DNA from: a virus
DNA length: 64,000 bases
Virus record (IMG/VR): IMGVR_UViG_3300027833_003138
Coordinates: 32,001 to 96,000 of that record
Direction: 5' to 3' (one strand)
Position numbers and translations under genes: made by a program. Of this stretch, positions 6,995 through 28,102 are shown piece after piece. Each line of letters opens with the position of its first letter. Within the stretch, counting starts at the first letter, position 1. Below the pieces are notes generated by a model. It ran no database searches. It was not told the origin of the DNA and saw only the letters and a program-made list of their open reading frames with translations.

Positions 6995-7072
6995 TTATAC
7001 AAAATATACTAACATAATTATGATCCCTACAACAATACCCAATTCAATAAAGAATGTTAGTCTGCTCTTCAT
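6995..7072 (-). CDS. 25-aa single-TM microprotein
   Basis: MKSRLTFFIELGIVVGIIIMLVYFV; ATGA overlap with the uvdE stop. Confidence 0.5.
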   Translation of the reverse strand: MKSRLTFFIELGIVVGIIIMLVYFV

Positions 7073-8088
7073 CCGTATAACGCTTTTTGCAGTAAGCGAA
7101 TAGCTTTGTCTTTGCCTTTAACTTCACATTCCCACTTTGCGGGTCTATCTACATCTATCGCAATATGAGGGGGGGTATTTCCAAGAGCGAAATAATCTGC
7201 GTGCGCTCTTGGTTTTTCGGGCTTACCTTCAGACCAATGAAATACAGGAGCAAAATAATCTGCCACTGCCTCGCATTCATCGTCATGCGGTTTATCTGTA
7301 TTTACCCATGTGTAAGCACATCTCTCTGCTTGAAATGTAATATTGCGTTCTTCTGATGGATTGCAAAAATCATGTAAATTGTCATAGCAGACAGGTATTT
7401 GAGCTCCGAATGTATCGTATAAGTGGTCGCTAAATTTTATGCAGTTATCTACATTAAAGAAACCTTTGTCTTCGTTTTCTATAGTTATTCGTTTGTAAAC
7501 TCCTTTATCGCACATAGAAAGATTGCGGAAGAATCTGGTAGCGACAATCTCTAATGTTTCATCTGCTTGTGGAGTGTAATTAATGTGAATATTCATTGGG
7601 GCACTATGATCTTGAGGTAAGCCTAATTGGTCAAGGACACTTGCTTGAAAATTTAATTCATTTATCGTTCGCTTTACTGCATCTTTATTATTTGACGCAA
7701 GAACATTAAATTGATCGGGGTGAGAGCCGATAGAAATCCTCAATGTTCGAGCAATTAATCCTGCTTGCCTTAATTCCTGTTTGATCGTGGCGTAATTCGG
7801 AAGGTCTTCAAGAGATATTTCCAAAGTTTGATCGGTAAGGAGAGGAAAAAGAGAAGAGCTAAGGCGATAATGCCTAATATTTGTGGCACTGCAATGATTG
7901 ATAATATATTGAGTAACAATAACATTGTGCAAAATTCTTTCAGAGAGTTGACTAAGGGCTTCATTTCTACTTTCTGAGTTACACAAATCATTGAATCTCT
8001 TGCGAGTCATTGTGCGAAATGAGTATTTCTTTTTGTCTTTATCTTTGAGTTCCTCACTAATGCAAGTTAGTCCTAGTATTGTTGTCAT
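7069..8088 (-). CDS. uvdE: UV DNA damage endonuclease UvdE/UvsE
   Basis: LGLTC, YRLSSSLFP, HPDQF, IHI, IENED, DNLHD, H.SE, HAD and EVKGKD motifs of the UvdE TIM barrel; promoter TTGACA-N17-TATACT 8096-8124. Confidence 0.9.
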   Translation of the reverse strand: MTTILGLTCISEELKDKDKKKYSFRTMTRKRFNDLCNSESRNEALSQLSERILHNVIVTQYIINHCSATNIRHYRLSSSLFPLLTDQTLEISLEDLPNYATIKQELRQAGLIARTLRISIGSHPDQFNVLASNNKDAVKRTINELNFQASVLDQLGLPQDHSAPMNIHINYTPQADETLEIVATRFFRNLSMCDKGVYKRITIENEDKGFFNVDNCIKFSDHLYDTFGAQIPVCYDNLHDFCNPSEERNITFQAERCAYTWVNTDKPHDDECEAVADYFAPVFHWSEGKPEKPRAHADYFALGNTPPHIAIDVDRPAKWECEVKGKDKAIRLLQKALYG

Positions 8089-10874: not shown

Positions 10875-11132
10875 TTAAAATAAGTTTAATTGATTTGGGT
10901 CTTCTGTTTCTATCTCTTCGTTATTTTCTTGAGTTTGTTTGATTTTTGATTTTGTTGATCGCAGCCAATTTCTTTGAGCCATTCTAACAACAAATCTCAT
11001 AAATGCAAAGGCATAAATTTTATTTAGCTCTATAGTTCCGTTAAATCCATCGTGATCGTACAAAGTGAAGACCTTGCTTTCTTCGTTGTATTCAAAGGTT
11101 GCATTCTTTAGTTGTTTTGTTATTTTTCCCAT
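10875..11132 (-). CDS. hypothetical protein (C-terminal QLNLF, beta-clamp-binding-like)
   Basis: ORF after perfect promoter 11143-11171; ends QLNLF, like the QL[SD]LF clamp-binding motif. Confidence 0.6.
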   Translation of the reverse strand: MGKITKQLKNATFEYNEESKVFTLYDHDGFNGTIELNKIYAFAFMRFVVRMAQRNWLRSTKSKIKQTQENNEEIETEDPNQLNLF

Positions 11133-11142
11133 ATTTCCTATC

Positions 11143-11171
11143 ATTATATCACATAGAGATTATTATGTCAA
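11143..11171 (-). promoter_or_regulatory. consensus sigma70 promoter TTGACA-N17-TATAAT
   Basis: Exact consensus match. Confidence 0.85.
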
Positions 11172-11218
11172 GATTAAAAAACCCGCACCAACACTGGGTT
11201 TCGGGTGTATATATGATT

Positions 11219-11581
11219 ATGCTGAAAGGAAAAGAAAGACAAATGGTTCTTGATTACTTGTATCAAGAGTGCCTTATAAACTCGCGAGATTTCTTCGCTT
11301 CTAGGAAGAAAATGACCTGCAAGATCGAATCTCAATTGAGGTACGAGCATATATCGGGAAAAGAAAGAATAGAGATTTATAACAAAATAATAAAAAAGAA
11401 AATAATAAATTTCTTGATCGAATGTATGTCTCAATCTTTATCGATGGACTATGTTAATGGATCGCCAGACAAAAGAAAAATGAGAATAAATGAATGGGCG
11501 ACAAATAAATATCAAAACATGCCCAAAAACGAAAAAATCGCAATCTGTGAAAAGATGGGATTTAAATATTTAACTAACTAA
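11219..11581 (+). CDS. hypothetical protein
   Basis: ORF; start placed 9 nt after GTGTA at 11205-11209. Confidence 0.65.
   Translation: MLKGKERQMVLDYLYQECLINSRDFFASRKKMTCKIESQLRYEHISGKERIEIYNKIIKKKIINFLIECMSQSLSMDYVNGSPDKRKMRINEWATNKYQNMPKNEKIAICEKMGFKYLTN
11542..11581 (+). repeat. direct repeat copy 1 (32 bp exact, 38/40 extended) flanking cysC
   Basis: AATCTGTGAAAAGATGGGATTTAAATATTTAA also at 12421-12452. Confidence 0.9.
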
Positions 11582-11602: not shown

Positions 11603-12406
11603 ATGAAAAGAAAAATTCTTATAATGGGACTTCCTGGATCAGGAAAAACAACATTAGCTGAAAAGCTTGTTGCTAAATTAAATGCCGCATGGTTTAACGC
11701 AGATGCAGTTCGTCAAGATATATATTCTGAACTTGGATTTTCTCCAGAAGATCGATTGTCTCATGCCACACGAATGGGAAAACTTTGTGATTGGGCAAAA
11801 ATAGGAGGTTCATATGTTATCGCAGATTTCGTATGCCCAACTCAAGAAACTAGAGCCGCTTTTGGTGCAGATTTTGTAATATGGGTAGATCGCATAATGG
11901 AGGGTAGGTATGAAGACACAAATAAAATGTTTGAAAGACCTATGAATTATGATTTAAGACTTACCGATGGAACTCCAGAAGAGTGGGTTGATAAAGTTGT
12001 TGAGAAATTAGACGAAACTGAAGCGTGGGATAATCAAGCTCCAACTGCGTTACTTATAGGTAGGTATCAACCATTTCACATCGGGCATAAGAGCCTTGTC
12101 GCTGAAGCCGTAAAAAGAACAGGCCAATGTTGCATTGCATTAAGAGATGTCGGCGGAATTGATGATAGTAACCCCTACGATTTTGAAAAAGTGAAAAAAG
12201 AAATACATTCTGCTTGTGTAGAATTCGGAAACAAAATTAAAGTTGTCGAACTCCCTAATATTATGGATGTATTTTATGGCAGAGGCGTTGGTTATAATAT
12301 CGAACAACTAGAACTAAGTAAAGAATTACAAGAAGTTTCTGCCACCAAAATCAGAGATGGTCAAATTGGTCAAGACGGAAAACCTTTAGGTAAGCGCCCT
12401 GAATAA
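11603..12406 (+). CDS. cysC: adenylylsulfate kinase fused to HxGH nucleotidyltransferase domain
   Basis: P-loop GLPGSGKTT, NADAVR, LGFS.EDR, DFVCP, FE.P; C-terminal GRYQPFHIGH and SATKIR. Confidence 0.85.
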   Translation: MKRKILIMGLPGSGKTTLAEKLVAKLNAAWFNADAVRQDIYSELGFSPEDRLSHATRMGKLCDWAKIGGSYVIADFVCPTQETRAAFGADFVIWVDRIMEGRYEDTNKMFERPMNYDLRLTDGTPEEWVDKVVEKLDETEAWDNQAPTALLIGRYQPFHIGHKSLVAEAVKRTGQCCIALRDVGGIDDSNPYDFEKVKKEIHSACVEFGNKIKVVELPNIMDVFYGRGVGYNIEQLELSKELQEVSATKIRDGQIGQDGKPLGKRPE

Positions 12407-12420: not shown

Positions 12421-12460
12421 AATCTGTGAAAAGATGGGATTTAAATATTTAAGTAATTAA
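12421..12460 (+). repeat. direct repeat copy 2; relic 3' end of the 11219-11581 gene
   Basis: Encodes ICEKMGFKYLSN* versus ICEKMGFKYLTN*. Confidence 0.9.
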
Positions 12461-13227
12461 GGCTCAATAAAGTGATCTGAGTTGATTGTCCTCCAGATAT
12501 AGTTCTCTACCTCGCTATAAATTTTAGAGAAAAATGGCTCGTTTTTTTTATCGAGCATATAAGATGGAGTTGCCCTTGTTTTGAAGACTCCTCGCGAACC
12601 TGCGCAGTGATGATATACGATGCCTCCATATACAGAATACAAAAGCGGATCGACAAACAAGCTCTGCTTTGAATCTCTCTGTATTTTTAACCAATTAATG
12701 CTTTTCTCATTTAAGCGTCCGAACAAGAGACCGCCTATATCGCCCCTCCAATCCACATTAGTATTAAAAGATCTATCTCTGCCCCAACAAAATTGATTAT
12801 CCCTCCAGAATTTAACTTTGCAGAAAGCGAAGGAGGGGTGTGGAGCTAGGCATCCCAAATTCTCAATTCGATTAACTGCGCAAAATTCATAATCCGCGAG
12901 ATTGCATTTAATATAGTTGTTGATATCGCCGATAGGAAACGCATCACTATCGAGAAAGATTAGAACATCATCTTCTTTAACGTTCGGGTCGCAGCACACA
13001 GTATTTGTTAATTGAGCAAGACCCATCTCGTGATCGTCGGACTCGTGGCCCGATTTTGATTTTTTATGACCAAGAAAATGATATTTATGTTCATGTTCTG
13101 ACAGGCATAAATCTTTACTAAAAAGAGCCCAAACTTTGTAGTCGCGAGTAAAGCGTTGAATATGCCTTAATTGAATATCAATCCATTTTATTGTTGCGTG
13201 ATGAATGGTAATATAATGTATTTTCAT
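12457..13227 (-). CDS. putative GT-A glycosyltransferase
   Basis: LIFLDSDAFP DxD motif; island context. Confidence 0.6.
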   Translation of the reverse strand: MKIHYITIHHATIKWIDIQLRHIQRFTRDYKVWALFSKDLCLSEHEHKYHFLGHKKSKSGHESDDHEMGLAQLTNTVCCDPNVKEDDVLIFLDSDAFPIGDINNYIKCNLADYEFCAVNRIENLGCLAPHPSFAFCKVKFWRDNQFCWGRDRSFNTNVDWRGDIGGLLFGRLNEKSINWLKIQRDSKQSLFVDPLLYSVYGGIVYHHCAGSRGVFKTRATPSYMLDKKNEPFFSKIYSEVENYIWRTINSDHFIEP

Positions 13228-13230
13228 GTT

Positions 13231-13836
13231 TTAAAATTGATAATCAAAGTATTCTATGTCTTTATGATATTTTTGAGAAACAATATCAATGGTTTTTTGG
13301 TTGTAATATTCGCTATAGTGCTTGCGGTTTGTTTTGTTTGTGTGGGGTAATTGTTGTCTCCGCTCGCCAACTTCATCACAAACTAAATTAAAGTCTTGCT
13401 GAAGATTTTCGAATCTTATGATGCGATCTATGCAGTTGCGCCCATCTATTTCAACGAATGAATATTGTGTATAAAAGTGATCTGCGCGTCCTGTGGAATC
13501 ATTTAAATGATTAATTTTTTCGTAACCATTGCGAATCAATAAATAATCTTCAAGTGTTGTGTTTTTTAAAAAATTAAAAAACGGTGAGCTTGGTCGAGTC
13601 CACCATTTGTAATCTGAAACTGCTCGATCCCACGGATTTCGAACAATTGCAAATTTATAATAGCTGCGAATATCAATTCCGTAAACTGATTGCATTTGGT
13701 ATATCGAACAATGCTGTTTCCATAAGCTACGTTTTTCGTCCCAACCATAAAAAGAATCGTCAAATAATTTCTCAACGCTTGTTCCTCCTGTTTTTGGAAT
13801 GTGAACGAAAATAATTTTATGTTCGCGATTTATCAT
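13231..13836 (-). CDS. sulfotransferase (Sulfotransfer_2-like)
   Basis: FVHIPKTGGTS PSB loop, VRNPWDRAVS PB motif, DIEYFDY C-terminus. Confidence 0.9.
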   Translation of the reverse strand: MINREHKIIFVHIPKTGGTSVEKLFDDSFYGWDEKRSLWKQHCSIYQMQSVYGIDIRSYYKFAIVRNPWDRAVSDYKWWTRPSSPFFNFLKNTTLEDYLLIRNGYEKINHLNDSTGRADHFYTQYSFVEIDGRNCIDRIIRFENLQQDFNLVCDEVGERRQQLPHTNKTNRKHYSEYYNQKTIDIVSQKYHKDIEYFDYQF

Positions 13837-14491
13837 TGCCAAGGGGGCGCTTATATAAGAAAGATTCACTTCTTTGATTCCATCCATAATGTAAAGCGGA
13901 ATGCGGTATGTCTGCATTGATTTGTATCATATTGTTTATGATGCAATTAATTTCAGAGTCAGAGTCATATAAATTACACAGTGTATCATGAAGAGTTAAA
14001 TACTGCCAATCTTTATCAAATTTGTACCGTTTGATGAATGCATTTTTTAGTTTCACTGACAAGGGATGGCCTGAATAATCAAAACACATAAACCAACTTG
14101 CTGTTTCAGCATAACCTCCCCTTGGGCTCAGTTTACGAGGAAAAAATCGGTATGCAAAAAAACCAGTGTCATTTACTAATTTATAGTAAAAGCTATTCAG
14201 TGGCAACATAGGATAAACACTAGTATCAACCCACACTCCTCCGAATTTTGATAAAAGCAAAACTCTCAACAAGTCTGATTGGGCGGCAAAAGATCGTTTT
14301 GGGGAGTCACGATTGATGGTGAAAAATTCAGGAACAAAATCTTGAATAGATTGATTATCCAAAACATGAATCCTGTAGTCTGGATTAAACTGTCTCCATC
14401 TTGATATGCATTCCATATTCAATTGTGGCACGTCAATATCGTTTTCCCCTTGAAACCAACACATCCATATTGTTTTTCTGGGAATGTTCAT
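13817..14491 (-). CDS. capsular polysaccharide synthesis protein (GT32-like)
   Basis: IWMCWFQG, SDLLR.LL..FGGVWVD motifs. Confidence 0.8.
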   Translation of the reverse strand: MNIPRKTIWMCWFQGENDIDVPQLNMECISRWRQFNPDYRIHVLDNQSIQDFVPEFFTINRDSPKRSFAAQSDLLRVLLLSKFGGVWVDTSVYPMLPLNSFYYKLVNDTGFFAYRFFPRKLSPRGGYAETASWFMCFDYSGHPLSVKLKNAFIKRYKFDKDWQYLTLHDTLCNLYDSDSEINCIINNMIQINADIPHSALHYGWNQRSESFLYKRPLGNDKSRT

Positions 14492-15354
14492 TTTAATAGT
14501 GAGGCAACCTGAGTATTAAAGTATTGTATCAGTTGTCGTTTTCGATTTTCGGTATCTATTGCTGCGACGCTCCAATTGACTGCGTCCATTTGGTCAAAGC
14601 GATAGCATGTGGTCATGCCAGCAAGTGTTGACATTCTTTGTTGGTCGCTTGAATGTTGAGGTGAGTTGACCTCGAAATTAGGATAAAATACAATCACAGG
14701 AATGCCCATCGCTATGCATGGGAGGGCGCAATGCAAGAAAGTTGTAATTACTAGTTTTGCGTTGTCTCTATAATTATCTAAAAGTTTTTCAGCCAATATC
14801 ATGTTGTCATCAAAGTTTGAGGTGTGCGAATAGTGATTAATATATTCACATTGAGAAGCAATATCTTTGGGTAATATGTTGAGTATATCTTTATCTCGTG
14901 ATGCAACAAAGATTTTGTTTTGGCTTGTTGTTGCTCTGCGCTTGGGCAGTGTTGTTGTGAGGCAGTTACTTGTATAGCAATCGATTGCTTGTTGATTAAG
15001 TAGATTGAATGTATGCAGATCACGACAGCCAATTGGTTGATGCATCTTGAAATAATCAACGCTGGTTTGGTTGGTTACATTATCAAATAATCCTTCGCGA
15101 TTTCTTGCATGAAATCCGATAAACAAAGGAATAATGTTATCCGATGGAGGCCAAATTTCTCCGCATCTTTTGTGCCAACCATTCATAACTAAGAAAAATT
15201 TATCAGAACTTACTGGTTGAATACCTGAGTCTCTATCCAAATAAATTTCAGGCTCGAGATCTAATTGTTTAAGCAATCTTAATTGAGCAATGATTTGAAT
15301 ATGATCGCCGAGATTGTTGCTATCAACAGAATAAGATGCAATCTTGATAGCCAT
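14488..15354 (-). CDS. polysaccharide pyruvyltransferase family protein
   Basis: NLGD.IQ, IGCRD, LHCALPCIAMGIPV motifs. Confidence 0.8.
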   Translation of the reverse strand: MAIKIASYSVDSNNLGDHIQIIAQLRLLKQLDLEPEIYLDRDSGIQPVSSDKFFLVMNGWHKRCGEIWPPSDNIIPLFIGFHARNREGLFDNVTNQTSVDYFKMHQPIGCRDLHTFNLLNQQAIDCYTSNCLTTTLPKRRATTSQNKIFVASRDKDILNILPKDIASQCEYINHYSHTSNFDDNMILAEKLLDNYRDNAKLVITTFLHCALPCIAMGIPVIVFYPNFEVNSPQHSSDQQRMSTLAGMTTCYRFDQMDAVNWSVAAIDTENRKRQLIQYFNTQVASLLK

Positions 15355-15359
15355 AAAAT

Positions 15360-15926
15360 TTATTTATTATTTTTTTTAAACAAATAGTATGGATAGTTTT
15401 CAATTTGTTTTTGTTGTGAGGGATTATACTTTGTGACAAAACCTGTTTCTTGGTGTTTTGTGTTAACCGCTTGATATTTACTTGAAGTTTTAGAATCGGT
15501 AAATAAATATGTGGAATTGTAGATACACAAATAGCCATTCTTTGCAACAAGTTGATCGATGATATCAAGTGTTTCCTCAAATATATTAAATTTATAAGAC
15601 AGATCATCATCAGAGCTCCATCGGCATAATACCGACATGGCAAAAACCAAATCAAATTTACAATTTAAACTTTCAAGACTATCTGTATACTCGATGTTTG
15701 AGTATTGATTGTTTTTAAAATTGTCACGAATGACATCTTTATTGATGTCGAATCCAACTTGCTTGATATCGGGGAAATATTTTTCTTGCAAGCTTTCGCA
15801 TTCAAGCCTATAAGAACAACCGAAAGATAGTATATTTTTGGGATTAGGGATGATTGACTGAATTTCAGAAAAAATATCAGGATATCTGTTTGGTAAAGTA
15901 CGAGTAGAGATTTGATTGGTTTTCAT
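15360..15926 (-). CDS. class I SAM-dependent methyltransferase
   Basis: ILSFGCS, GFDIN, FDLVFAMSVL. Confidence 0.7.
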   Translation of the reverse strand: MKTNQISTRTLPNRYPDIFSEIQSIIPNPKNILSFGCSYRLECESLQEKYFPDIKQVGFDINKDVIRDNFKNNQYSNIEYTDSLESLNCKFDLVFAMSVLCRWSSDDDLSYKFNIFEETLDIIDQLVAKNGYLCIYNSTYLFTDSKTSSKYQAVNTKHQETGFVTKYNPSQQKQIENYPYYLFKKNNK

Positions 15927-15941
15927 GTTTTATTAAAATGT

Positions 15942-16445
15942 TTACAAATAAATCACGAATTGCCGCTCTTGCACTTCAACTTTGAGATCGTGTAGAGCAA
16001 CAAATTCATCAACTGCAGGCTGTGGGCCAGGCGTTAATGGGTGAGACCATCCATAATCATCTCCGCATAAAAATCCGCCTTTCTTGACTTGGGGATACCA
16101 ATGTTGCAAATCCTCCAAAACAGAAGCGTAGCTATGATCCGCATCAATATATACCCAGTCAAAATACTCTTTCCCAAAAAACATATCTTTAGAGTTGTTT
16201 TTGTGAATAAAAGCGTTAGATTGATTTTTAAATTTATCTTTTACATGCTTGTATGCATCAATTATTTTTTGACCTTTTGCCCATTTAACCCATTCATGAT
16301 CCTGATGTATCCATGGATCAATTAAATGCAATTCCTTTGGGTTGCATTCGAGTATTTGCGAGGAAAAATCTCCTCTCCATACGCCAATTTCTGCGCATAT
16401 ATCGTTAGTTTTAATTTTTTTGATTGGTAGTAGTCGCGGTCTCAT
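15942..16445 (-). CDS. class I SAM-dependent methyltransferase (Methyltransf_24-like)
   Basis: AEIGVWRG, YIDADHSY, GG.LCGDDY. Confidence 0.85.
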   Translation of the reverse strand: MRPRLLPIKKIKTNDICAEIGVWRGDFSSQILECNPKELHLIDPWIHQDHEWVKWAKGQKIIDAYKHVKDKFKNQSNAFIHKNNSKDMFFGKEYFDWVYIDADHSYASVLEDLQHWYPQVKKGGFLCGDDYGWSHPLTPGPQPAVDEFVALHDLKVEVQERQFVIYL

Positions 16446-16467
16446 TATAATAATATTATTGTTAGGG

Positions 16468-17247
16468 TTATCGTTTATTACACCAATTTTTATATTCAAT
16501 TAGTTCATTGCTTGCGATCATTCTATAATCAAAAAGCTCAAAGTCTTGTTTGCATTTTCTATTAATAACTTCTAGGTCACCAACTTCGTAATGATGTAAA
16601 TATTTATAAACCAAGCCGTCTCCAAAGAAAGAATCGCAACTTTGGTCTAGTGGTTTCGTGTTGATATTTTTGGATAGAGTTGGAATCTCATTATAAGGTA
16701 AGCCAATCATCTCGCAAACTTTTTTAAAATCTTCCTCAAATCTTTCGTTTTTCCCTATAAAATTCATTTTTAATGAATTATCTTGATGCGTCCAGCGTTT
16801 GAAAAATCCGCCAGACCTTATCTGATGAAGTGGGTTAAGGAGTTTTAGGTAGTTTCGAAATAAAAAATTACCATTTCCGTCCGTACATTGTTTTAACTTC
16901 TCAAGTTTTCGCTTGTCAATCCTCCAAGCTGCATCATGCTTGCCGTTTTCTTCTTGGTGTTTAATGTATGTTGGCGAGGCATCAAATTGACTGCGAGAAT
17001 AAAAATAATCGTATGGATTGCGTATGAAACAAAATTTAAAATAATCTTTGCATTCCTCATATATTGGTAGCTGCTGTAAATCATCTATCCAGATATGTCG
17101 AGAGATTGCTTTATTTAGCGTGTTATTAAACATAGGTTTTTCAAGTTCTAGGTAATTATTGAACTGCCCAAGTCTTGCGTGCAAAGTTGAAGTTCCTGTC
17201 TTAGGCACTTCAAAAAAAATAAAACGGTAATCGTGCGAAATAATCAT
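16468..17247 (-). CDS. sulfotransferase (Sulfotransfer_2-like)
   Basis: FFEVPKTGTST, IRNPYD, DFELFDY. Confidence 0.85.
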   Translation of the reverse strand: MIISHDYRFIFFEVPKTGTSTLHARLGQFNNYLELEKPMFNNTLNKAISRHIWIDDLQQLPIYEECKDYFKFCFIRNPYDYFYSRSQFDASPTYIKHQEENGKHDAAWRIDKRKLEKLKQCTDGNGNFLFRNYLKLLNPLHQIRSGGFFKRWTHQDNSLKMNFIGKNERFEEDFKKVCEMIGLPYNEIPTLSKNINTKPLDQSCDSFFGDGLVYKYLHHYEVGDLEVINRKCKQDFELFDYRMIASNELIEYKNWCNKR

Positions 17248-17837
17248 TGTTGTTGGAATTTATAGTTAAAGTATTCAATGTCCTTCTTGTATGCTGATTC
17301 GATAATTTTCATGTCGTACTCGTTATAATACTCCCCGTAATGTTCTCGATGTTGGTGAGCTTCTTTTTTAAATGGGCCATTATAGGTCGACAATGAAGGA
17401 GGGCAAATATTAAGGTTTTCGCACAACTGATTAAAGTCTGAATTTAAATTTTCAAACCTAAGAACATAATCTAACTCTATTGATTTATTAATAGCCAAGA
17501 AGTCATATTGACTGCCTAGACCTCCCCACATGTTAAATTTTTTTTCAACAAAAGCGAAACTCAGCCAATCGGAAAAGTTTTTTTGCTTGATGGTTTTATT
17601 AAACTGAGTGAAATATATATACATAGATACTACTCTATCCCAAGGATTTCGAACTACAGAAAATTTATAATATTTATTCCAGTATTTAGAATAATTTTGC
17701 TTACATTGGCTGGCGTTCCAGTGTTTTTCTTTCGTTTCGTTTTTGAGTACAGAATCGTCTGCAAGGCTCACGGAAATAGATGTGCCTGCCGTTTTGGGAG
17801 TGTGAATAAAGATGAATTTATGTTTGTGATTTATCAT
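17244..17837 (-). CDS. sulfotransferase (Sulfotransfer_2-like)
   Basis: FIHTPKTAGTS, VRNPWDRVVS, DIEYFNY. Confidence 0.9.
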   Translation of the reverse strand: MINHKHKFIFIHTPKTAGTSISVSLADDSVLKNETKEKHWNASQCKQNYSKYWNKYYKFSVVRNPWDRVVSMYIYFTQFNKTIKQKNFSDWLSFAFVEKKFNMWGGLGSQYDFLAINKSIELDYVLRFENLNSDFNQLCENLNICPPSLSTYNGPFKKEAHQHREHYGEYYNEYDMKIIESAYKKDIEYFNYKFQQQ

Positions 17838-17849
17838 TTATAAGGCAGA

Positions 17850-18491
17850 TTAACAATGTTTATGCCAAGAGTTCATTGTGAATGGAGGGTTAAGGTAATT
17901 ATAATGATTTTTAACCGCGTTATTCACAAATACCAAATCGCATTGAGCTAAGACATTGTGTTTGTAACAAAGATCAACAATATGGCATAATGAAAAATTT
18001 GATTCATGTAGAATATTACTAATCTGGTTAAACGCTGGCATTTTCGCCTCAATAATAACGAATGCACATTTGGCTAAACTATTTTTCGCCCCATTTAAAA
18101 TATCAACTTCTAGTCCGTCAACATCAATTTTAAGTAAAGCTGAATCTTGGATATTCTCCTCTGCAAACACAGTATCTAGAGATTTTACGCGAACCGAAAT
18201 TTCAGATTTCTCAGAATTTAAGTCGCTTCCCCCAGTTTTTCGATGAAGATACAACTTGGAATCAAATTCAGCACATCCAATATCTAGTAATTTATATTGT
18301 AGTTTGCTATAGTTTTTATGAATCGATTCAAAATATTGGGGGTCAGGCTCTATTAATATATGCTTAGCTTCGCTGAACACTCTCAATTCTTTTGTTTGAT
18401 ATTGACATCCAGCATCTATTATAGTCGAAAACGGAAAGCTGTATTGACATAAAAAATCACAAAAAAATTGTTTTGTAGGTTTAGGTTTCAT
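17850..18491 (-). CDS. FkbM-family methyltransferase
   Basis: IIDAG, IEP, SLD, LLKIDVDGLE..IL.GA. Confidence 0.85.
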   Translation of the reverse strand: MKPKPTKQFFCDFLCQYSFPFSTIIDAGCQYQTKELRVFSEAKHILIEPDPQYFESIHKNYSKLQYKLLDIGCAEFDSKLYLHRKTGGSDLNSEKSEISVRVKSLDTVFAEENIQDSALLKIDVDGLEVDILNGAKNSLAKCAFVIIEAKMPAFNQISNILHESNFSLCHIVDLCYKHNVLAQCDLVFVNNAVKNHYNYLNPPFTMNSWHKHC

Positions 18492-18502
18492 TGCGTTTGG
18501 TT

Positions 18503-19387
18503 TTATAGGTTATTTAAAAAATTTATAAAATATTCAACGCTAAGTTCTTTTTTGGTTGATCGTATGGCTAGATAATCTGAAACTTCCTGTATGAAAGCTC
18601 TATCTGTTAATCGTTTGTCGATGTTGTCTGGCAGATCATCTAAATACATAGGATAGTCTTCCCCTAGATACTCTACAATGGGCGGAATTTTATTAACTAA
18701 AACGGGCGTGTGCGTCATTATATGTTCAAGAATAGAGGTGCTGGCAGAGCAATCATCGTAAAAAGCATAACCTATTGTGCAGGTTAGAAGCTCTATATAA
18801 TCATCTGGCTCAAGAAAACCATTTCGAAAAATAATAGAATCATTATCTGAAAGGCTCTTTTTGTACTTTTTTTCCCTTGCTGTCCTATCACAAGTAATTA
18901 ACTTGGTTAAGTTAGAATTAAAATTAATAAAGTGATTAATATTCCTTCCGAAAAACCCACTATGCCTCAAGGTTGGAGCTGTGAAATAGAGATCAATTTC
19001 AAAACGATGACCTGTGTCGGGCTTTGGGTGCAAAAGTGTTTTAATGGGAATTGACGTTTTCGTCTGACAGTGTTGCCTTGTGTGTTCGCTGGTCGTTAAC
19101 AAAAAAAGACAATTATCTTTGGTTTTCCTATAAATAGCAGAGGAGAAAAAACGGTTTAAGTTTTGCTCTCTAGACTCGCTAGCGATGCCATGTAAAATTC
19201 CAACCCATTTATTTCTTTTCAATAAATCAAGTTGATATTCATTGTGGTATCCATCTGCCCATGCATCTAGAATCGGTTCGCCTTCGACTAATTTAGCTTG
19301 CCGCTTAAACTTTTCGATAATAAATCCCCACCCATAAAAATGGTCTTTTATAATACTCGCGGGGCATCTAATGTGAGAGAAATTCAT
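18503..19387 (-). CDS. putative GT-B-like glycosyltransferase
   Basis: SASTSILE...TPVLVN..P..VEYLG resembles a GT-B C-terminal donor-binding region; weak. Confidence 0.45.
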   Translation of the reverse strand: MNFSHIRCPASIIKDHFYGWGFIIEKFKRQAKLVEGEPILDAWADGYHNEYQLDLLKRNKWVGILHGIASESREQNLNRFFSSAIYRKTKDNCLFLLTTSEHTRQHCQTKTSIPIKTLLHPKPDTGHRFEIDLYFTAPTLRHSGFFGRNINHFINFNSNLTKLITCDRTAREKKYKKSLSDNDSIIFRNGFLEPDDYIELLTCTIGYAFYDDCSASTSILEHIMTHTPVLVNKIPPIVEYLGEDYPMYLDDLPDNIDKRLTDRAFIQEVSDYLAIRSTKKELSVEYFINFLNNL

Positions 19388-19390
19388 AAT

Positions 19391-20041
19391 TCAAACAATT
19401 GAACGCGCGATATTTATCACATCTCCAAAGCCTCCAGAGTCTGTAATCGAATGCTTCGCCAAAGAAAGCGTTAAAAAGTCTTCGTCGATATGATCAACTT
19501 GTCTTTTCTCGTTTTGATGTATCGAAATAGGCAAGTTAAATCTAACTTTTATGGTTTGAATTATGTCGTTAAAACGAATGCGGTTTTCGTCTACAGCTTC
19601 TTCGCTGAATTGCCAGATTTTTTTAAACTCGTTATCTCCAAAATGTAATGCTGATACTATTTCGATCTTTTTAATTTCTTTGTTTTGATTTGATTTTTCA
19701 TATATTTTTGAATATAATTTATCTGGAAAGTAAAGAAATAGACCAACGCTTTTGCCGTATGAGTGCATAACGCAATCCCCTAGTCTCATGTTAATGTATA
19801 AAGTATTTTCGTTAACATTCACTCTGTTTTTTAGGGAATTAATGCATTTTTTGAGAGCATTTATGTTTAATTTGTTTAAAGGGCCCTTAGATTCTAAATA
19901 GAGCCTTAATAGGCTGCCTTCGTATTCGGTATTGTTTAGGATGACTTCTTTATCGTGCAACCATCTGGCCCCTTTACAAAATAATAGATCTCCTAGTCTA
20001 TAATGAGGGTTTGATTTAAAAATCTTGATTTGATCGAACAT
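19391..20041 (-). CDS. putative fucosyltransferase-like (GT11/GT23-like) protein
   Basis: YINMRLGD resembles H(V/I)RxGD; D.DF..L...GGF tail. Confidence 0.45.
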   Translation of the reverse strand: MFDQIKIFKSNPHYRLGDLLFCKGARWLHDKEVILNNTEYEGSLLRLYLESKGPLNKLNINALKKCINSLKNRVNVNENTLYINMRLGDCVMHSYGKSVGLFLYFPDKLYSKIYEKSNQNKEIKKIEIVSALHFGDNEFKKIWQFSEEAVDENRIRFNDIIQTIKVRFNLPISIHQNEKRQVDHIDEDFLTLSLAKHSITDSGGFGDVINIARSIV

Positions 20042-20049
20042 GGTTTTTA

Positions 20050-20688
20050 TTAAAATTTATAACCAAATCTATCTATATCTTCAGCGTAAACCTCGGTTAC
20101 TATTTTTTTAGTTTCTTTACTGTAATACTCTGAGTAATGCTTTCGTTTAATTTGTTTTTCGTGGAGCAGTTGAGCTTTAGGAAAAGCAATAAGGCTACAT
20201 AACGCATTGTAGTCTTTTTGGAAATTTTCTAGCCTACCAATAAAATTAACACCCTGCGGCACATAATCACTCTGAGGTTGCCAGTGATGATCTGAGTGTT
20301 GATTGATGGAAATGTCAAGAAATTCCTCGAATGTCGTGTTTTTGCCTACATTGATGTTATGGTCTTTCAAGAGTCCAGTCGCATAACTATTTGTCGTAAA
20401 ATATTTCCATGCCGATAATATTCGATCATATGGATTGCGCACGAATGTAAAAGAAATATATCGCTTATCTGTATGTATTGGAGCTTGAACTGAATTTAAG
20501 CAAGGAGAGCAAGGGCCTAAAGGCCAAGATTTTGGAAACAGCATTCTCCGCAAAGTTGAAGAACCAACTTTTGGGACATCGTAGTAAATGTAGTTTTTTA
20601 CATTATCAATATAGCGAAATGTATATTTTCTTCTATCTCCTGCGGCCGAAGGGCATAGGCAACCTTTTGATTCGCATCTTATTTTCAT
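20050..20688 (-). CDS. sulfotransferase (Sulfotransfer_2-like)
   Basis: YYDVPKVGSST, VRNPYDRILS, HW.PQ, DIDRFGY; GTGTA 10 nt upstream. Confidence 0.9.
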   Translation of the reverse strand: MKIRCESKGCLCPSAAGDRRKYTFRYIDNVKNYIYYDVPKVGSSTLRRMLFPKSWPLGPCSPCLNSVQAPIHTDKRYISFTFVRNPYDRILSAWKYFTTNSYATGLLKDHNINVGKNTTFEEFLDISINQHSDHHWQPQSDYVPQGVNFIGRLENFQKDYNALCSLIAFPKAQLLHEKQIKRKHYSEYYSKETKKIVTEVYAEDIDRFGYKF

Positions 20689-20720
20689 GTCCAGTATATA
20701 CACCCGCTGATTAATTATAA

Positions 20721-21449
20721 TTATATAATTATTCGGTGCAATTTTTCACCCACGAAGTAATCAGGAACTTCAATATTGAATTTCTCACAACTAGTTTTGC
20801 AATTTTGAGTTGCTAGCCCTTTGTATGTGCTCTCTCCGTAAGTACAAATATTATGGTCTAAGGTAAGACATGTCCCAGTTAAAGGTTTAACGTGTTTGTC
20901 CATAGAGAGGGCTTTATATTGATGCGGCTCTTCTAGGTGCCCCCAGAACTCTCTTAGCGCTCCAACCCTAAAAAATTGATGAAGCCAATTGTTGGTGTAG
21001 GCATTATGCTCTATAAACCTAAGATTATCAAACGAAACACTTACCCCTTTGTTGTTGTTTTTCAGGCAAAGCGCGGAGTTCCTTATCGACCTAACGAAAT
21101 GGAAGCATACATTTACAATTTGAGGGTCATCAATTGAGTCAATAAAGGCCACGACCTGGTTCGCTTTTGCTTCGTCAATTTTTATTGGATACTTGTCATC
21201 AATGCACCAATATACCCACTCATTATCTTCAAGATCTTTCGTTAAACTATCAAATGTTTCTTTAAATTTAATATCTGTCTGCACGAGATCAACTTTTGTT
21301 TTGAATTTATCGCGAATCTTTTCTGGCTTTTTTTTATTCCAAGGTATTCTAAAAGTAAATGAATTGGAGGGCCAAAGCTGTTCATACTTAAGCAACATGT
21401 GCTCCGCCATTGCATGATATCTGTCGCAGCTTTGAACTATAGCTTTCAT
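20721..21449 (-). CDS. putative GT-A glycosyltransferase
   Basis: SCD.Y N-terminus and WCIDD acidic motif. Confidence 0.5.
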   Translation of the reverse strand: MKAIVQSCDRYHAMAEHMLLKYEQLWPSNSFTFRIPWNKKKPEKIRDKFKTKVDLVQTDIKFKETFDSLTKDLEDNEWVYWCIDDKYPIKIDEAKANQVVAFIDSIDDPQIVNVCFHFVRSIRNSALCLKNNNKGVSVSFDNLRFIEHNAYTNNWLHQFFRVGALREFWGHLEEPHQYKALSMDKHVKPLTGTCLTLDHNICTYGESTYKGLATQNCKTSCEKFNIEVPDYFVGEKLHRIII

Positions 21450-22141
21450 TGTAAATCTCGGTGTAGTGTTTGTTTCCAGTTTAAGTTCGAATCCGCCCAA
21501 TTAATTCTCTTTTGGCTCAATTTGTCTTTATATTCTAATAGATATACTTCGGCTCTCTCGTTTTCATATTTATGTTTTTTTGCGGATTCATGATGTTCGG
21601 GGTGAACAAGTATATTTACTTTGTATTGTATTTTAGGATTTAAAAACCTTAGTAAGTCATGAAACTCTTTTATGTCTTCTAGAGATGGAATGTAATGAGG
21701 GATAAACTGTTCGTTAGCGCAATAAAAAAAGTTTATGAAGTTAGCTTTACCCAACTCATTCTTAAAGCGATCCAGACGACGATTCATCATATCTGTAAAA
21801 GTGATTATTGATGTATTATATTTACCTTTATCAATATAATGCGGAGATATTAATGGAAAATTTTTACACTCAATTAACTCTTTAGATGTTATCCAGTTTT
21901 CATTTAATGGAACATTCTCACCATTGCAGCGATACCTCCAATGGTTTTGGCTATTGTAATTTAAGCAATAGTTTACAAAGTCATCTTGTTTGAATTTTTT
22001 AATCTTCATTATCTCGATAACAGTCTTAAAATTGGTGACCATGTTATCAAATATATGAGTCTCTAACTTGCGCCTAAGGAGTTTACTAATGTGAAGTGAC
22101 ATTTGGCACCCTTGCCCGAGGCTGATGTAGCTTTTGTTCAT
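21446..22141 (-). CDS. DUF1796-like putative papain-like peptidase
   Basis: YISLG.GC, IFD, RRLDRF pattern. Confidence 0.6.
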   Translation of the reverse strand: MNKSYISLGQGCQMSLHISKLLRRKLETHIFDNMVTNFKTVIEIMKIKKFKQDDFVNYCLNYNSQNHWRYRCNGENVPLNENWITSKELIECKNFPLISPHYIDKGKYNTSIITFTDMMNRRLDRFKNELGKANFINFFYCANEQFIPHYIPSLEDIKEFHDLLRFLNPKIQYKVNILVHPEHHESAKKHKYENERAEVYLLEYKDKLSQKRINWADSNLNWKQTLHRDLQ

Positions 22142-22143
22142 TT

Positions 22144-22749
22144 TTATTCTCCAAATTTGTATCCGAAATACTCAATGTCTCGTGCATATTTTTCCGCGAC
22201 AATTTCGCGAGTTTCATCATCGTAGTATTCGGTATAACGATTTCTGTTTCTTTTGTTAATATGTGGCAGTTTTAGGTCGGGTATATTTAAATAATTACAC
22301 ACGTACGAAAAATCATTTTCAAAATTTTCAAATCTGCCAAGAAAATCAACAGCCACATTACCTTCATTATCTCGTAAAAAATCATATTGAGGGACGGAGT
22401 GAGAGGGGTCAAGGTTTGTTGGAGATAAAAGAAACTTTTTTAAGCTTTGTTTTTTTGGGCCGCCGAAATAAAAGTAATCCGATATAGCTCTGTCCCACGG
22501 GTTTCTAATAAAAGAGAAAGAAAAATAATCATTCTTTAATTTTGGGTGAATTTCATAAACTTCACTGATTGTAAGATGTTGAAGATATTTTCCTGTATGC
22601 TCATCCCTACCAAGTAATAATTGCTTGTCGCAAAAATCATTTGGGAATTTTTTTTTGTCCCATAAATTATAACCAAATGAAGTTTCAATACTAGAACCTC
22701 CACACTTGGGCATGTGAATGAAGATAAACTTGTGCTTGTGGTTTATCAT
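22144..22749 (-). CDS. sulfotransferase (Sulfotransfer_2-like)
   Basis: FIHMPKCGGSS, IRNPWDRAIS, DIEYFGY. Confidence 0.9.
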   Translation of the reverse strand: MINHKHKFIFIHMPKCGGSSIETSFGYNLWDKKKFPNDFCDKQLLLGRDEHTGKYLQHLTISEVYEIHPKLKNDYFSFSFIRNPWDRAISDYFYFGGPKKQSLKKFLLSPTNLDPSHSVPQYDFLRDNEGNVAVDFLGRFENFENDFSYVCNYLNIPDLKLPHINKRNRNRYTEYYDDETREIVAEKYARDIEYFGYKFGE

Positions 22750-23390
22750 ATCCAACTGCCTCCCCAATGGTGTACAGCGTGCGCTTCTGGACAAGTTTTA
22801 GAAAAATCTTCTGATTTGCGATGAACTTCGTACCACAAGTAAGGATAAACAGTTTTTTTCGGAGAGTCTCTTCCGTCCGGCCTCCCCTTTTTTGAGCCCA
22901 GTATTTCAGTGATATATACAGGACCATATTTACAATCCGAAATTTTGTTTCCGTGAGATTTTTCTCGAGACGGCAGACTGTCTATGAGGCGCTTGAGGTC
23001 TAAATTTTTCTTGGTGGCCCCAAAAAATGCTCCGCATATTTTTTGCGGTTGCTGCCAATATAATACAATTTTCTCATCTTTCAATAAAGCGTCTATAGGC
23101 TTTAAGCATTCAAAGTCAGTATCGACATATAATCCTCCATACTGATATAGAATTTCAAATCTTAAAATATCTGACTTTTCCGAATAATTTTTGCAGTTTT
23201 TGAGTATTTTAGGATAGGTTATACTTAAATCTTGTTCGATTTTTAAGTCATCCCACATTATGTGTTCCCATTCGGGGTTTAATTTTTTCCAACTATCTTG
23301 CCACTCTTTTTCTTGGTTGGATAGCTCACTGCCACCTATATGAATTTGGTGTATGATTTTTGGAATGCTATCTTTTTGATCTAGCTTCAT
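22746..23390 (-). CDS. GT32 glycosyltransferase (Och1/DXD sugar-binding)
   Basis: IPKIIHQ, SDILR.EILY.YGGLYVDTD, HHW..SW. Confidence 0.85.
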   Translation of the reverse strand: MKLDQKDSIPKIIHQIHIGGSELSNQEKEWQDSWKKLNPEWEHIMWDDLKIEQDLSITYPKILKNCKNYSEKSDILRFEILYQYGGLYVDTDFECLKPIDALLKDEKIVLYWQQPQKICGAFFGATKKNLDLKRLIDSLPSREKSHGNKISDCKYGPVYITEILGSKKGRPDGRDSPKKTVYPYLWYEVHRKSEDFSKTCPEAHAVHHWGGSWI

Positions 23391-24036
23391 GTATTTGACG
23401 CATGGTATTTGAATTTACATAATGAGTTGTAATTTTGTCATGATTCATGATAGCGTTCATGCATACCGATTGATCTGATCTCGCGCTATCTGGGCTTGGT
23501 GTTGATAATAAATCCGTAACAGTTAAGTCGATTTTTTGATCGCGTAAGGCAAGCCCTATGGAGTAATCCTCCGCAGATTTGTTTTTGAATTCATTTTTGT
23601 AAAAATGTTTTAATGATTGCAGGCATTTCTCAACAGCTTTTCGCGTTAGAATGTATCCCGCACCCCCCTGAGCATATGGAAATGGGTTAACTATTTTGCC
23701 ACCTATATACCAATCAGCGCTTGCGTCGTAGTCTTTTAGAAATTGCATAAGTTTATCAAAATTTATATAAGTGTCATCGTCACACTTGAATAAAAAGTCC
23801 CACTCGTGTTTCAATGACTCCACAAGCATTTTGTAAGTTTTTTCAGGCAAACGAAATCGCGCTTCTCCTTCGTCAGGCGAACAATTCCACGTTTTATCCA
23901 TTTTTTGAGATTGCTGTTGATCTCCGTAAAAAAAATACTCATGTGGAGCTTTTATATTATTTACCCATGTATCTAAGCAAGCATTAGCTTGTTCTTGTGT
24001 GCCACTGTGAGTTAAAATTGTTGTTAATATTTTCAT
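23368..24036 (-). CDS. GT31 (Fringe/galactosyltransferase-like) glycosyltransferase
   Basis: FKCDDDTY, YAQGGAGY.L, ED...G. Confidence 0.8.
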   Translation of the reverse strand: MKILTTILTHSGTQEQANACLDTWVNNIKAPHEYFFYGDQQQSQKMDKTWNCSPDEGEARFRLPEKTYKMLVESLKHEWDFLFKCDDDTYINFDKLMQFLKDYDASADWYIGGKIVNPFPYAQGGAGYILTRKAVEKCLQSLKHFYKNEFKNKSAEDYSIGLALRDQKIDLTVTDLLSTPSPDSARSDQSVCMNAIMNHDKITTHYVNSNTMRQIHEARSKR

Positions 24037-24767
24037 TTTCTGTTTAAAATTTCTTTTACCACTTCGATCCTTACTTGATCGAGCGATGCGGATTCATATT
24101 TTTGTGGGTATTTTTTCATTATTCGATCAATATTGTGGTGAGAAACATGATATGCTCTGATGGGGTCGCGAATATCTGGAAAGTAGGGAGAGACATCTTC
24201 CTTTCTTTTTCGAGTCAAAGTTAATGAGTGTTGTTTTGCAAGCGACCGAAAGTTAGTATTGCTTTCTGTGAAATTATAAATAAAAAATTCTTGATCATGG
24301 TAGTGGTTTGCTTGTTTTTTAATTTCATCAAGCCTTAATAGGGTAATGTCGTAAAACAATTCGCATAATTTTTTAAATTCAGATGGCGTTCCAGAGGCCA
24401 TGCAAGGGCACGCGTCATCGAAAAAATGAATTCCTCCTACGAGGGGGTCGTTGATGGTCCATCTACCACTATTAATTACGTCGTAATCAGAGACAAGAAA
24501 TCTTTCGCTTTTATTATCTAAGGCAGAATATGCAAGCCATCTTACAAAACAACTCAATCCATATGGGGTTAAATCGTTCCCAGTAATTTCTTTAAAAATA
24601 AACCTCATTTTGCCAACAAATAAATCGTATTCTGGAGATTTTTTTGCATCGTTAATGTTAAGGGTAATAGGTTCAAAGCCCATTTCCTGCCAACTCAGGG
24701 CCCAAAGTTCGAGTAGCTCTTTTTGTTGTGGAAAATTAATTTCTTCGTAATATGTATAAATCTTCAT
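24033..24767 (-). CDS. putative GT-A glycosyltransferase
   Basis: RWLAY...SDYDV DxD motif, HDQ. Confidence 0.5.
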   Translation of the reverse strand: MKIYTYYEEINFPQQKELLELWALSWQEMGFEPITLNINDAKKSPEYDLFVGKMRFIFKEITGNDLTPYGLSCFVRWLAYSALDNKSERFLVSDYDVINSGRWTINDPLVGGIHFFDDACPCMASGTPSEFKKLCELFYDITLLRLDEIKKQANHYHDQEFFIYNFTESNTNFRSLAKQHSLTLTRKRKEDVSPYFPDIRDPIRAYHVSHHNIDRIMKKYPQKYESASLDQVRIEVVKEILNRK

Positions 24768-26668: not shown

Positions 26669-26669
26669 A

Positions 26670-27383
26670 TTATGATAAATATTTATATAATTTCGATTGT
26701 TCTTCTCTCTTTATTAAAGAAATACACTTATCGACTTTCTTGGGTAATTGTTTTCTGAAATTTTTAAATTGAATTTCTGCTTTTTCTTGATCGTAGTTTG
26801 TGCCTCTTGGGTGAATGATTTTATGGTTTTTATCTCTCAGGACTAATTTTTTATTTAAAAAACTAATTGAAGCTAAAGCTAAATCAATACCCCATCCGTA
26901 ATCTTCATTACGAAGATTAATATTGTAATCTTTAAATTGGTTTATAATATCTTTATGTATGAACCAAACCGTTTCGTCTGTACATCCAACTATGTCTAAG
27001 TTTTGATGCCGTAATAAATTGCGCTTATCTTCTATCCTGAAACTTTCTGTTGTATACCAAGTATAGTCTATATTCGGAGAGTAAATTCCGCAATCATAGT
27101 GCTTGAAATAATAAATTGCATCGCTAACTAATTCTTCCCAGCGATCATAGGATACATCTCCTTGTATGTGGAATAAAATATCTCCAGAAAAGTTTTTAAG
27201 GGCAGTATTGAATTGCCCGGAAAAGTAAAATTCATCGCCAATATTAATCCAGTTTTCTGGGCAATAATGATCGTCGCTATTTATGACTTTAACTTTATCA
27301 AAAATAGAATTTAATTGAAAGAATATTTTTTTAGAGTTTTCTGATTTTCCTTTCCAGTTAAATATGAATGGCTCAATTACCAT
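26670..27383 (-). CDS. putative GT-A glycosyltransferase
   Basis: HIQGDV, GWGID motifs. Confidence 0.5.
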   Translation of the reverse strand: MVIEPFIFNWKGKSENSKKIFFQLNSIFDKVKVINSDDHYCPENWINIGDEFYFSGQFNTALKNFSGDILFHIQGDVSYDRWEELVSDAIYYFKHYDCGIYSPNIDYTWYTTESFRIEDKRNLLRHQNLDIVGCTDETVWFIHKDIINQFKDYNINLRNEDYGWGIDLALASISFLNKKLVLRDKNHKIIHPRGTNYDQEKAEIQFKNFRKQLPKKVDKCISLIKREEQSKLYKYLS

Positions 27384-27409
27384 TTCTCTTGGCGGCTTCT
27401 TCCTGCTTT
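27301..27409. repeat. 109-bp direct repeat copy A
   Basis: 107/109 identical to 28125-28233. Confidence 0.95.
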
Positions 27410-28101: not shown

Positions 28102-28102
28102 A

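Follow-up and report, generated by a model that had tools for sequence, protein, structure and literature searches.

A 267-residue phage protein joining an APS-kinase-like domain to a miniature NadM-like nucleotidyltransferase: a candidate minimal PAPS synthase

The locus described here raises the question of whether one short phage protein could carry sulfate through both steps of its activation, to adenosine 5'-phosphosulfate (APS) and then to 3'-phosphoadenosine 5'-phosphosulfate (PAPS). The window (the whole stretch of DNA analysed; 64,000 nt, positions 32,001 to 96,000 of IMG/VR virus record IMGVR_UViG_3300027833_003138) contained an ATG-started open reading frame (ORF) of 267 amino acids (aa) at window positions 11603-12406 (plus strand), with two domains, a kinase followed by a small nucleotidyltransferase. 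The full two-step reading, in which the protein is a minimal PAPS synthase and its sulfurylase arose without descent from Sat or CysDN, was given slightly better than even chances. The tiny second domain, which resembles nicotinamide mononucleotide (NMN) adenylyltransferases (NMNAT), probably activates sulfate. Evenly balanced was the wider proposal that this domain of about 115 residues forms a third class of ATP sulfurylase with an evolutionary origin of its own, which alone would fill the Sat step beside AprBA in SAR11 bacteria and, fused to the kinase, would form the smallest known PAPS synthase (267 aa), with which marine phages would sulfate glycans whatever the sulfate-activation capacity of the host.

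Fold and family of the two halves

The fusion gene is real and conserved. The PHROG family phrog_10255 (labelled "kinase") matched the protein over its full length (1.9e-52), and its AlphaFold2 model had a predicted local distance difference test (pLDDT) of 94 and a predicted template modelling score (pTM) of 0.73. Relatives numbered more than 7,000 in a set of 5.8 billion proteins, many of them from marine contigs of 150-240 kb, and an exhaustive search returned 2,447 representatives (E ≤ 0.001). Matches in the ESM Atlas were "cytidyltransferase" clusters only, viral for the most part. The source was a 140,314-bp IMG/VR virus contig (completeness about 79%), which justifies calling it a phage; PHROG matches in the rest of the window were limited to tail-fibre and clamp-loader families, and the phage, an uncultured marine one, is therefore taken to be large and poorly sampled. 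A 1036-aa ORF had weak and partial matches only. The original prediction had named the ORF, a P-loop kinase, the motifs GRYQPFHIGH and SATKIR, and a kinase-then-nucleotidyltransferase order. The 267-aa ORF and the motifs (P-loop GLPGSGKT, residues 9-16; GRYQPFHIGH, 153-162; SATKIR, 246-251) lay as placed, and Pfam, the AlphaFold2 model and Foldseek returned the same domain order.

The N-terminal half (residues 1-140; 11603-12022, plus strand) is APS-kinase-like in sequence and fold. Pfam APS_kinase (PF01583) matched residues 5-86 with 45.1 bits (cut-off 21.1), over profile positions 5-91 of 152 only. The leading NCBIfam families were APS kinases for the N-terminal part and NadM-type NMN adenylyltransferases for the C-terminal part, in both cases far under the curated cut-offs. 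The top matches of a PDB sequence search were APS kinases only (E 6e-6 to 1e-3; 2yvu at 6e-6, the PAPSS1/2 kinase domains, M. tuberculosis CysC and others), and all leading Foldseek matches of the AlphaFold2 model were APS kinases (E about 3e-9; TM(target) 0.6-0.78); the CysC-like P-loop kinase that had been predicted at the N-terminus was thus recovered by both searches.

Among 46 diverse relatives (34-48% identity), G9, G14 and K15 of the Walker A P-loop GLPGSGKT (11627-11650, plus strand) and R37 were invariant, and T16 nearly so; D34, F46, R51, F76, P79, D105 and T106 were conserved in at least 90%. In HMMER alignments with 2yvu, 2pey and 2ofw, the DGDN(I/V)R motif had its second Asp opposite D34 and its Arg opposite R37, and the LGFSxxDR motif had its Phe opposite F46 and its Arg opposite R51 (residues 34-51; 11702-11755, plus strand). 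Residues of these two motifs have a role in APS binding in APS kinases. The first Asp of the DGD motif was replaced by Asn (Asn32), and the domain, with about 140 aa, was shorter than the chains of the APS kinases matched (173-205 aa). The kinase half is likely to be an APS kinase.

The C-terminal half (residues 141-255; 12023-12367, plus strand) is a miniature HxGH (HIGH-superfamily) nucleotidyltransferase, whose nearest relatives in both sequence and fold were NadM-type NMNAT and phosphopantetheine adenylyltransferase (PPAT). Pfam CTP_transf_like matched residues 151-175, and the domain folded alone had a pLDDT of 93.6. Foldseek returned NadM NMNATs and PPATs first (E about 1e-4). In a second structure search (VIA), independent of Foldseek and the source of all Z scores given here, 1f9a (NMNAT) and 4nah (PPAT) scored Z 10.2 and 2qjt (NadM) Z 10.0, followed by NadR (Z 8.6-8.8), the ATP sulfurylase (Sat) 1v47 (Z 8.2, 119 residues aligned), a group of TagD, HldC, cytidylyltransferases and a protein titled as lipopolysaccharide (LPS) core biosynthesis (Z 7.5-8.4), and the ATP sulfurylases 1j70 and 1x6v (Z 6.5 and 6.6, respectively). 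The comparison with Sat, NadM and TagD that the original prediction had proposed as a check therefore placed NadM and PPAT best, and Sat and TagD lower.

The nucleotide-binding HxGH motif GRYQPFHIGH (12059-12088, plus strand) had its G, R, Q, P, H, G and H invariant in a trimmed alignment. The Gly-Arg loop YGRGVGY (residues 225-231; 12275-12295, plus strand), written YGR[GD]VGY for the family, had Y, G, R, V, G and Y invariant both in that alignment and in the 46 relatives. In SATKIR (12338-12355, plus strand), the C-terminal ISxTxxR motif of the superfamily, S, A and T were invariant and R was conserved in at least 90%. Invariant elements of the small-domain family were, in all, GRxQPxHxGH, R181, NP, PNI, YGR[GD]VGY, IE and SAT..R. 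GRxQPFHxGH and ISxTxxR, here at residues 153-162 and 245-251, are typical of NadM, and the HIGH fold class is common to the small domain and Sat.

These matches favour, as one alternative, a working adenylyltransferase for NMN or nicotinic acid mononucleotide, whose fusion would serve NAD salvage or ADP-ribose metabolism and whose kinase would act on nicotinamide riboside or on an adenosine-ribose hydroxyl, in analogy to NadR; NadM and NadR NMNATs were the best sequence and structure matches, and the GRxQPFHxGH motif is on its side as well. The domain was small for that role, with 113 residues against 143 for NadM in structural alignment. In the 1f9a alignment, 112 model residues spread across chain residues 1-143, and about 30 residues of the NadM core are therefore absent; the absent part presumably includes the NMN-binding helix with the NMN-stacking Trp. 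All NMNAT equivalog cut-offs were missed by far (TIGR01527, 20.3 vs. 181 bits; PRK01153, 23.4 vs. 127 bits), and the kinase half matched APS kinases, not ribosylnicotinamide kinase. An NMNAT or cytidylyltransferase type had been offered in the original prediction as the alternative to a sulfurylase; of these, the NMNAT type agreed with the homology found and is improbable as a function.

The small domain and APS reductase in SAR11

SAR11 are the most abundant marine bacteria. A scan with the small domain over one genome per prokaryotic species returned orthologues at 54-60% identity, and nearly all of the best 80 loci considered were from Pelagibacterales, complete chromosomes included. The SAR11 protein bore the database names "cytidyltransferase" or "phosphopantetheine adenylyltransferase". 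One complete SAR11 genome encoded kinase and small domain in two separate, overlapping genes of 135 aa each, and a metagenomic split form had the same arrangement; unfused halves stay adjacent or overlapping.

All five complete SAR11 genomes had the APS reductase gene aprA, and none had Sat, or CysD or CysC over cut-off (the mini-kinase scored about 38 bits). Among 151 genomes of the SAR11 order, at least 80% complete, the small domain was found in 122, aprA in 124 and Sat in 7. A vacancy for an ATP sulfurylase thus exists in SAR11, with Sat in 0/5 complete and 7/151 sampled genomes and CysD in 0/5. "Ca. P. ubique" was reported to have AprBA and to lack cysDNCHIJ and sat (PMC5069961), and it was stated that "Most SAR11 lack ATP sulfurylase" (PMC10356861). 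In seven strains "cysC" and aprA followed one presence/absence pattern, the gene meant by "cysC" there being unclear (PMC5069961).

The jobs of NMNAT and PPAT are already covered in SAR11, by NadD and by CoaD over cut-off (5/5 complete genomes each). The presence of NadD speaks against an NMN adenylyltransferase, which would also leave unexplained the position in the aprMBA operon described below and the association with sulfotransferases in phages; the overlap of the gene with an upstream NADAR-domain gene in Xylella/Stenotrophomonas phages speaks for it. On both sides taken together, this alternative was regarded as improbable. Scarcely credible was an analogue of PPAT plus dephospho-CoA kinase that would complete coenzyme A (CoA) synthesis, by the same logic of adenylyl transfer followed by 3'-phosphorylation. 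PPAT tied for the top structural match (4nah, Z 10.2) and was frequent among Foldseek matches, and relatives carried the JGI name 'phosphopantetheine adenylyltransferase'; against this, canonical CoaD was over cut-off in all five SAR11 genomes, the kinase was APS-kinase-like and not CoaE-like, and no CoA-pathway genes were linked to the gene in phages.

The small domain and aprA were distributed together in the 151 genomes. Both were present in 118 and both absent in 23; the small domain occurred without aprA in 4, and aprA without the small domain in 6 (odds ratio 113; Fisher p = 8e-18, a value overstated because shared ancestry is ignored). Leaving out G085, an unpublished genome with both genes, gave 117, 4, 6 and 23 genomes with both, the small domain only, aprA only and neither, respectively, and no conclusion depends on it. 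By comparison of coordinates, the two genes were at most 2 kb apart on the same contig in at least 25 of the 151 genomes.

Three arrangements represent this proximity. In G025, the kinase and small-domain genes abutted aprM-aprB-aprA-orf116 convergently. In L114, they preceded aprM-aprB-aprA by about 1.7 kb in the same orientation. In G125, the small-domain gene, without the kinase gene, preceded aprM-aprB-aprA-orf116 by 53 bp, again in the same orientation. This place directly upstream of aprMBA is one in which sat is often found in sulfur oxidisers. No APS-kinase-like match was found in G125, G135, G088 or G113 with the TIGR00455 apsK model, which detects the mini-kinase elsewhere; the small domain therefore appears to work with APS reductase without a kinase in these four genomes. 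Its association with aprA links the small domain to APS independently of the kinase. The prediction that the small domain adenylates sulfate fared well in that SAR11 orthologues track or abut APS reductase in genomes without Sat or CysD, and less well in that its homology was NadM-like.

The linkage to aprMBA shows a connection with APS and not the direction of the reaction, and this leaves room for a second alternative, in which a genuine APS kinase would use host-made APS and the small domain would act on APS or PAPS without activating sulfate: by APS + phosphate (Pi) -> ADP + sulfate, by APS + pyrophosphate (PPi) -> ATP only, or as an APS/PAPS-binding regulatory module. The useful direction in SAR11 that oxidise sulfite is APS consumption, in accordance with it. 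The invariance of HxGH and ISxTxxR, on the other hand, makes a module with a regulatory role only less likely; such nucleotidyl transfers can as a rule run both ways, and an ATP-forming enzyme should also activate sulfate; and fusion to an APS-consuming kinase makes most sense with an APS-producing partner.

Two further ORFs were noted in SAR11. A conserved ORF of 116 aa lay directly after aprA in both the convergent and the same-strand arrangement (L168:4498-4848; L169:8200-8550), and the L168 copy matched no Pfam family. Some genomes had a second, longer APS-kinase-like gene (G001:C1:140630-141067, G002:C1:133714-134211, G092:C8:25944-26453), which matched nearly the whole apsK profile with 72-110 bits, below cut-off, with a TAA stop within the match in G001 and G092.

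Sulfotransferases near the fusion gene

The fusion gene faces an 18-kb minus-strand island for glycan modification (12457-30715) with six PF03567 sulfotransferases, the presumed users of PAPS, at 13231-13917 (8.7e-15), 16468-17247 (6.9e-13), 17244-17837 (2.3e-15), 20050-20703 (1.3e-20), 22144-22794 (1.7e-20) and 27472-28101 (2e-13), all on the minus strand. Glycosyltransferase-type genes number at least six in the island and include Caps_synth/DXD, Fringe-like, GT2 and GT25 types; four methyltransferases and a polysaccharide pyruvyl transferase are also encoded there. Further members are a papain-like protein with DUF1796 and several ORFs without a family (e.g., a 634-aa ORF at 24764-26668).

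An association with sulfotransferases across phages had been proposed as a check of the original prediction, and it was present. With a hidden Markov model (HMM) built from the six sulfotransferases of the window, sulfotransferase ORFs were found at most 10 kb from the fusion in 14 of 80 divergent fusion-bearing viral loci, and directly upstream on the same strand in several phages only 45-48% identical (L038, L051, L042, L035 and L060). All four close relatives (90-100% complete) had 5-10 sulfotransferases per record. Among 50,697 records of isolate phages, 5 (4 distinct phages) had a homologue of the window's sulfotransferase; the kinase family was in 15 isolate records, which included 3 of those 5 (2 of 4 distinct phages), namely DLP_6 and phiRSL1, the latter under two accession numbers (chance overlap p = 2e-10 by records and 3e-7 by distinct phages).

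The phiRSL1 homologue was a kinase only (42% identity over 139 residues), without the small domain, in a co-directional gene run with three glycosyltransferases, two nucleotidyltransferases and one sulfotransferase. That phiRSL1 manages with the kinase alone is a further point for a kinase fed with host-made APS; given the points set out above on both sides, that alternative was judged unlikely.

The glycan island bears on a third alternative, the activation of a sugar or polyol for the adjoining cluster in the manner of HldE, in which the kinase would make a sugar phosphate and the nucleotidyltransferase a nucleoside-diphosphate sugar or a CDP-alcohol. The cluster is rich in glycosyltransferases, and TagD, HldC, cytidylyltransferases and the LPS-core-titled protein were among the structural matches (Z 7.5-8.4). 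The residues aligning with DGDN(I/V)R and LGFSxxDR were nevertheless conserved, the SAR11 orthologues lay beside aprMBA and not beside glycan genes, and no glycan cluster was near the gene in most phage loci. Sugar activation was therefore considered decidedly improbable.

In the preferred reading, that of a PAPS synthase, we infer both catalytic activities and the direction of reaction from the architecture, folds, conserved residues and gene associations observed. The HxGH domain, a presumed miniaturised descendant of NadM-type NMN adenylyltransferases, would move the AMP moiety of ATP onto sulfate, with APS and PPi as products (the ATP sulfurylase reaction). The fused kinase with its shortened lid would then, judging by homology and conserved residues, phosphorylate the 3'-OH of APS to give PAPS, which the six sulfotransferases would, from their context, use on a glycan that the glycosyl-, methyl- and pyruvyl-transferases next to them build. 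Sulfate adenylation has a very unfavourable equilibrium. The kinase step would pull it forward, possibly with channelling between the two domains, and fusion or pairing with a kinase would therefore be selected; for the same reason the SAR11 domain beside AprBA would, when sulfite is oxidised, catalyse the favoured reaction, APS + PPi -> ATP + sulfate.

Literature searches returned no paper describing a fusion of the kinase and the small domain or a new type of ATP sulfurylase. The new element would be PAPS synthase and ATP sulfurylase function on a non-orthologous miniature domain, which a cautious balance of the evidence just favours. If true, ATP sulfurylases would have, beside Sat and CysDN, a third type of very small size, and the enzyme would be named for the gap in SAR11, which have APS reductase and in most strains no known ATP sulfurylase (PMC5069961, PMC10356861). 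Viral "cysC" has been listed as an auxiliary gene not validated (PMC12713726); if the reading is true, viral "cysC" genes of this family may be complete PAPS synthases for phage-encoded sulfation, not for sulfur assimilation. A PAPS synthase of 267 residues would also be handy for making sulfated compounds in engineered cells.

Contrary results, known systems and possible mobility of the gene

Several results weigh against a two-step PAPS synthase. In the kinase half, the APS-kinase equivalog TIGR00455 scored 39 bits, below its cut-off of 138.7 bits, and the C-terminal third of the APS-kinase profile, which we take to be the mobile-lid region, was unmatched. For the small domain, Sat structures (Z 6-8.2) scored under NMNAT and PPAT (Z 10.0-10.2). 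The 267-aa protein had no Pfam match to Sat (PF01747), and hhalign of the small-domain profile with seven genuine SAR11 Sat proteins gave a probability of 5.8% over 25 columns around HxGH, leaving YGR[GD]VGY and the VGRDHAG of Sat unaligned. All seven Sat proteins had VGRDHAG, and three of them QTRNIPHxGH; GRYQPFHIGH did not meet the QxRN(P)xHxxH motif of Sat, with which the two His and the Pro alone correspond. The 25 best-scoring families out of 44 weak Pfam matches included no PUA-like domain such as Sat has at its N-terminus, where the phage protein carries the kinase. Membership of the Sat family was ruled out by the missing Pfam match and the hhalign result, and if the small domain is a sulfurylase, it therefore became one independently.

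In SAR11, a distance of about 51-391 kb separated the kinase/small-domain pair and aprA in each of the five complete genomes, and in most genomes the small-domain gene was tens to hundreds of kb from aprA. Adjacency to aprA is therefore a feature of particular subclades only, and a general adjacency of the small domain to aprBA was rejected as holding only for a subset (at least 25 sampled genomes). The co-distribution with aprA may reflect only a few lineage-level events. Complementary distribution of the small domain and Sat was not seen, as six of the seven Sat-bearing genomes also had the small domain; the six aprA-positive genomes without the small domain were also without Sat.

In phages, four other fusion-bearing viral records at least 90% complete had no PF03567 sulfotransferase; with all four close relatives having them, the link is therefore strong and not obligatory. 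Sano/Salvo-type siphophages had no sulfotransferase among the annotated products within about 6 kb of the gene, and in Sano/Salvo-type Xylella/Stenotrophomonas phages the fusion gene overlapped an upstream NADAR (COG3236) gene (L001:5565-6741; L003:4565-5741), a link that is covered by none of the proposed explanations. No pyrophosphatase, CysQ or Sat was found in the 140-kb phage record (about 79% complete); the lack of the first two counts with the points above.

Among known systems, the metazoan PAPSS1/2 (1x6v, 1xjq) come nearest in plan to the PAPS synthase proposed here: one chain with an N-terminal APS kinase followed by a HIGH-class adenylyltransferase, with homologous kinase halves and PAPS as product, here a proposed one. 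They are over twice as large (the 1x6v chain has 630 residues), and both this and the shared domain order agree with the comparison made in the original prediction; their sulfurylase half is Sat-family with a PUA-like domain, whereas the phage protein has in its place an NMNAT-like domain of about 115 aa without detectable Sat relationship, and a shortened lid. CysC (PF01583, TIGR00455) shares the P-loop fold and the residues aligning with DGDN(I/V)R and LGFSxxDR, and differs in its length (173-205 aa vs. about 140 aa) and in having Asp at the first position of DGD, where the phage kinase has Asn. Sat (PF01747) is alike in its HIGH-superfamily fold, in its HxxH-type motif, in SxT..R near the C-terminus, and also in gene position, the small-domain gene being directly upstream of aprMBA in one SAR11 group; the Gly-Arg-(Asp/Gly) loops of the two may correspond. 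It differs in its QxRN motif and PUA-like domain, and the catalytic domain of the phage protein is roughly half the size.

NadM (1f9a, 1ej2, 2qjt), the closest relative in structure and sequence, shares the GRxQPFHxGH and SxTxIR motifs; its core is about 30 residues longer, and the genomic associations of the small domain are with sulfur genes, not NAD genes. NadR (6gye, 8x7f) likewise fuses a HIGH adenylyltransferase (NMNAT half, Z 8.6-8.8) to a P-loop small-molecule kinase, in the opposite order, whereas the kinase here is of the APS-kinase type. Bacterial CysNC and Sat-CysC fusions (2gks, 4bzp) also combine sulfate activation and APS kinase in one polypeptide; their sulfurylase part is a GTPase-coupled CysN(D) or a full-size Sat.

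The fusion gene shows cassette-like behaviour within a variable region. A pair of 40-nt direct repeats brackets it, the upstream copy at 11542-11581, forming the 3' end of the ORF at 11099-11581, and the downstream copy, 95% identical, at 12421-12460. In the closest relatives, DNA-level conservation was limited to the fusion gene itself (66-82%) and did not extend to the flanks. This looks like a cassette insertion. In a FastTree tree of 146 small-domain sequences, phage and SAR11 clades were interleaved: the SAR11 group that has the small-domain-aprMBA operon paired with one phage clade as its sister (support 0.978), the G025-type group paired in this way with a second (support 0.85), and the window's own clade was largely viral. 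The tree was midpoint-rooted, and no direction of transfer is therefore claimed. A contig binned as a Halobacteriovorax metagenome-assembled genome (MAG) carried a 267-aa ORF (L086:7584-8387) with a small domain 82% identical to that of the window; it nested in the window's viral clade. Most likely, binning placed a contig of a phage in the MAG, or the ORF belongs to a prophage.

A promoter scan in front of the fusion gene gave nothing exceeding chance. The only strong promoter-like site of the region, a perfect 12/12 sigma-70 consensus at 11171-11143 (minus strand; TTGACA, 17-nt spacer, TATAAT, with TG upstream), is directed towards the minus-strand genes that begin at 11144. Fusions with DUF4118, on either side of the kinase, occurred among metagenomic mini-kinase homologues (P0121, P0185, P0191, P0194, P0208, P0227 and P0230), and in P0121 DUF4118 was N-terminal of the entire kinase and small-domain fusion. 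DUF4118 is the membrane domain of KdpD-type sensors, and these fusions would suggest membrane anchoring in some lineages. In Bhz60, an annotated 'cysteine dioxygenase' lay 3 kb upstream of the fusion gene. Elsewhere in the window, a UvdE-type UV damage endonuclease (PF03851, 4e-31) was encoded at 7069-8088 (minus strand), and an ORF of 2,322 aa lay in the structural region at 52913-59881 (plus strand).

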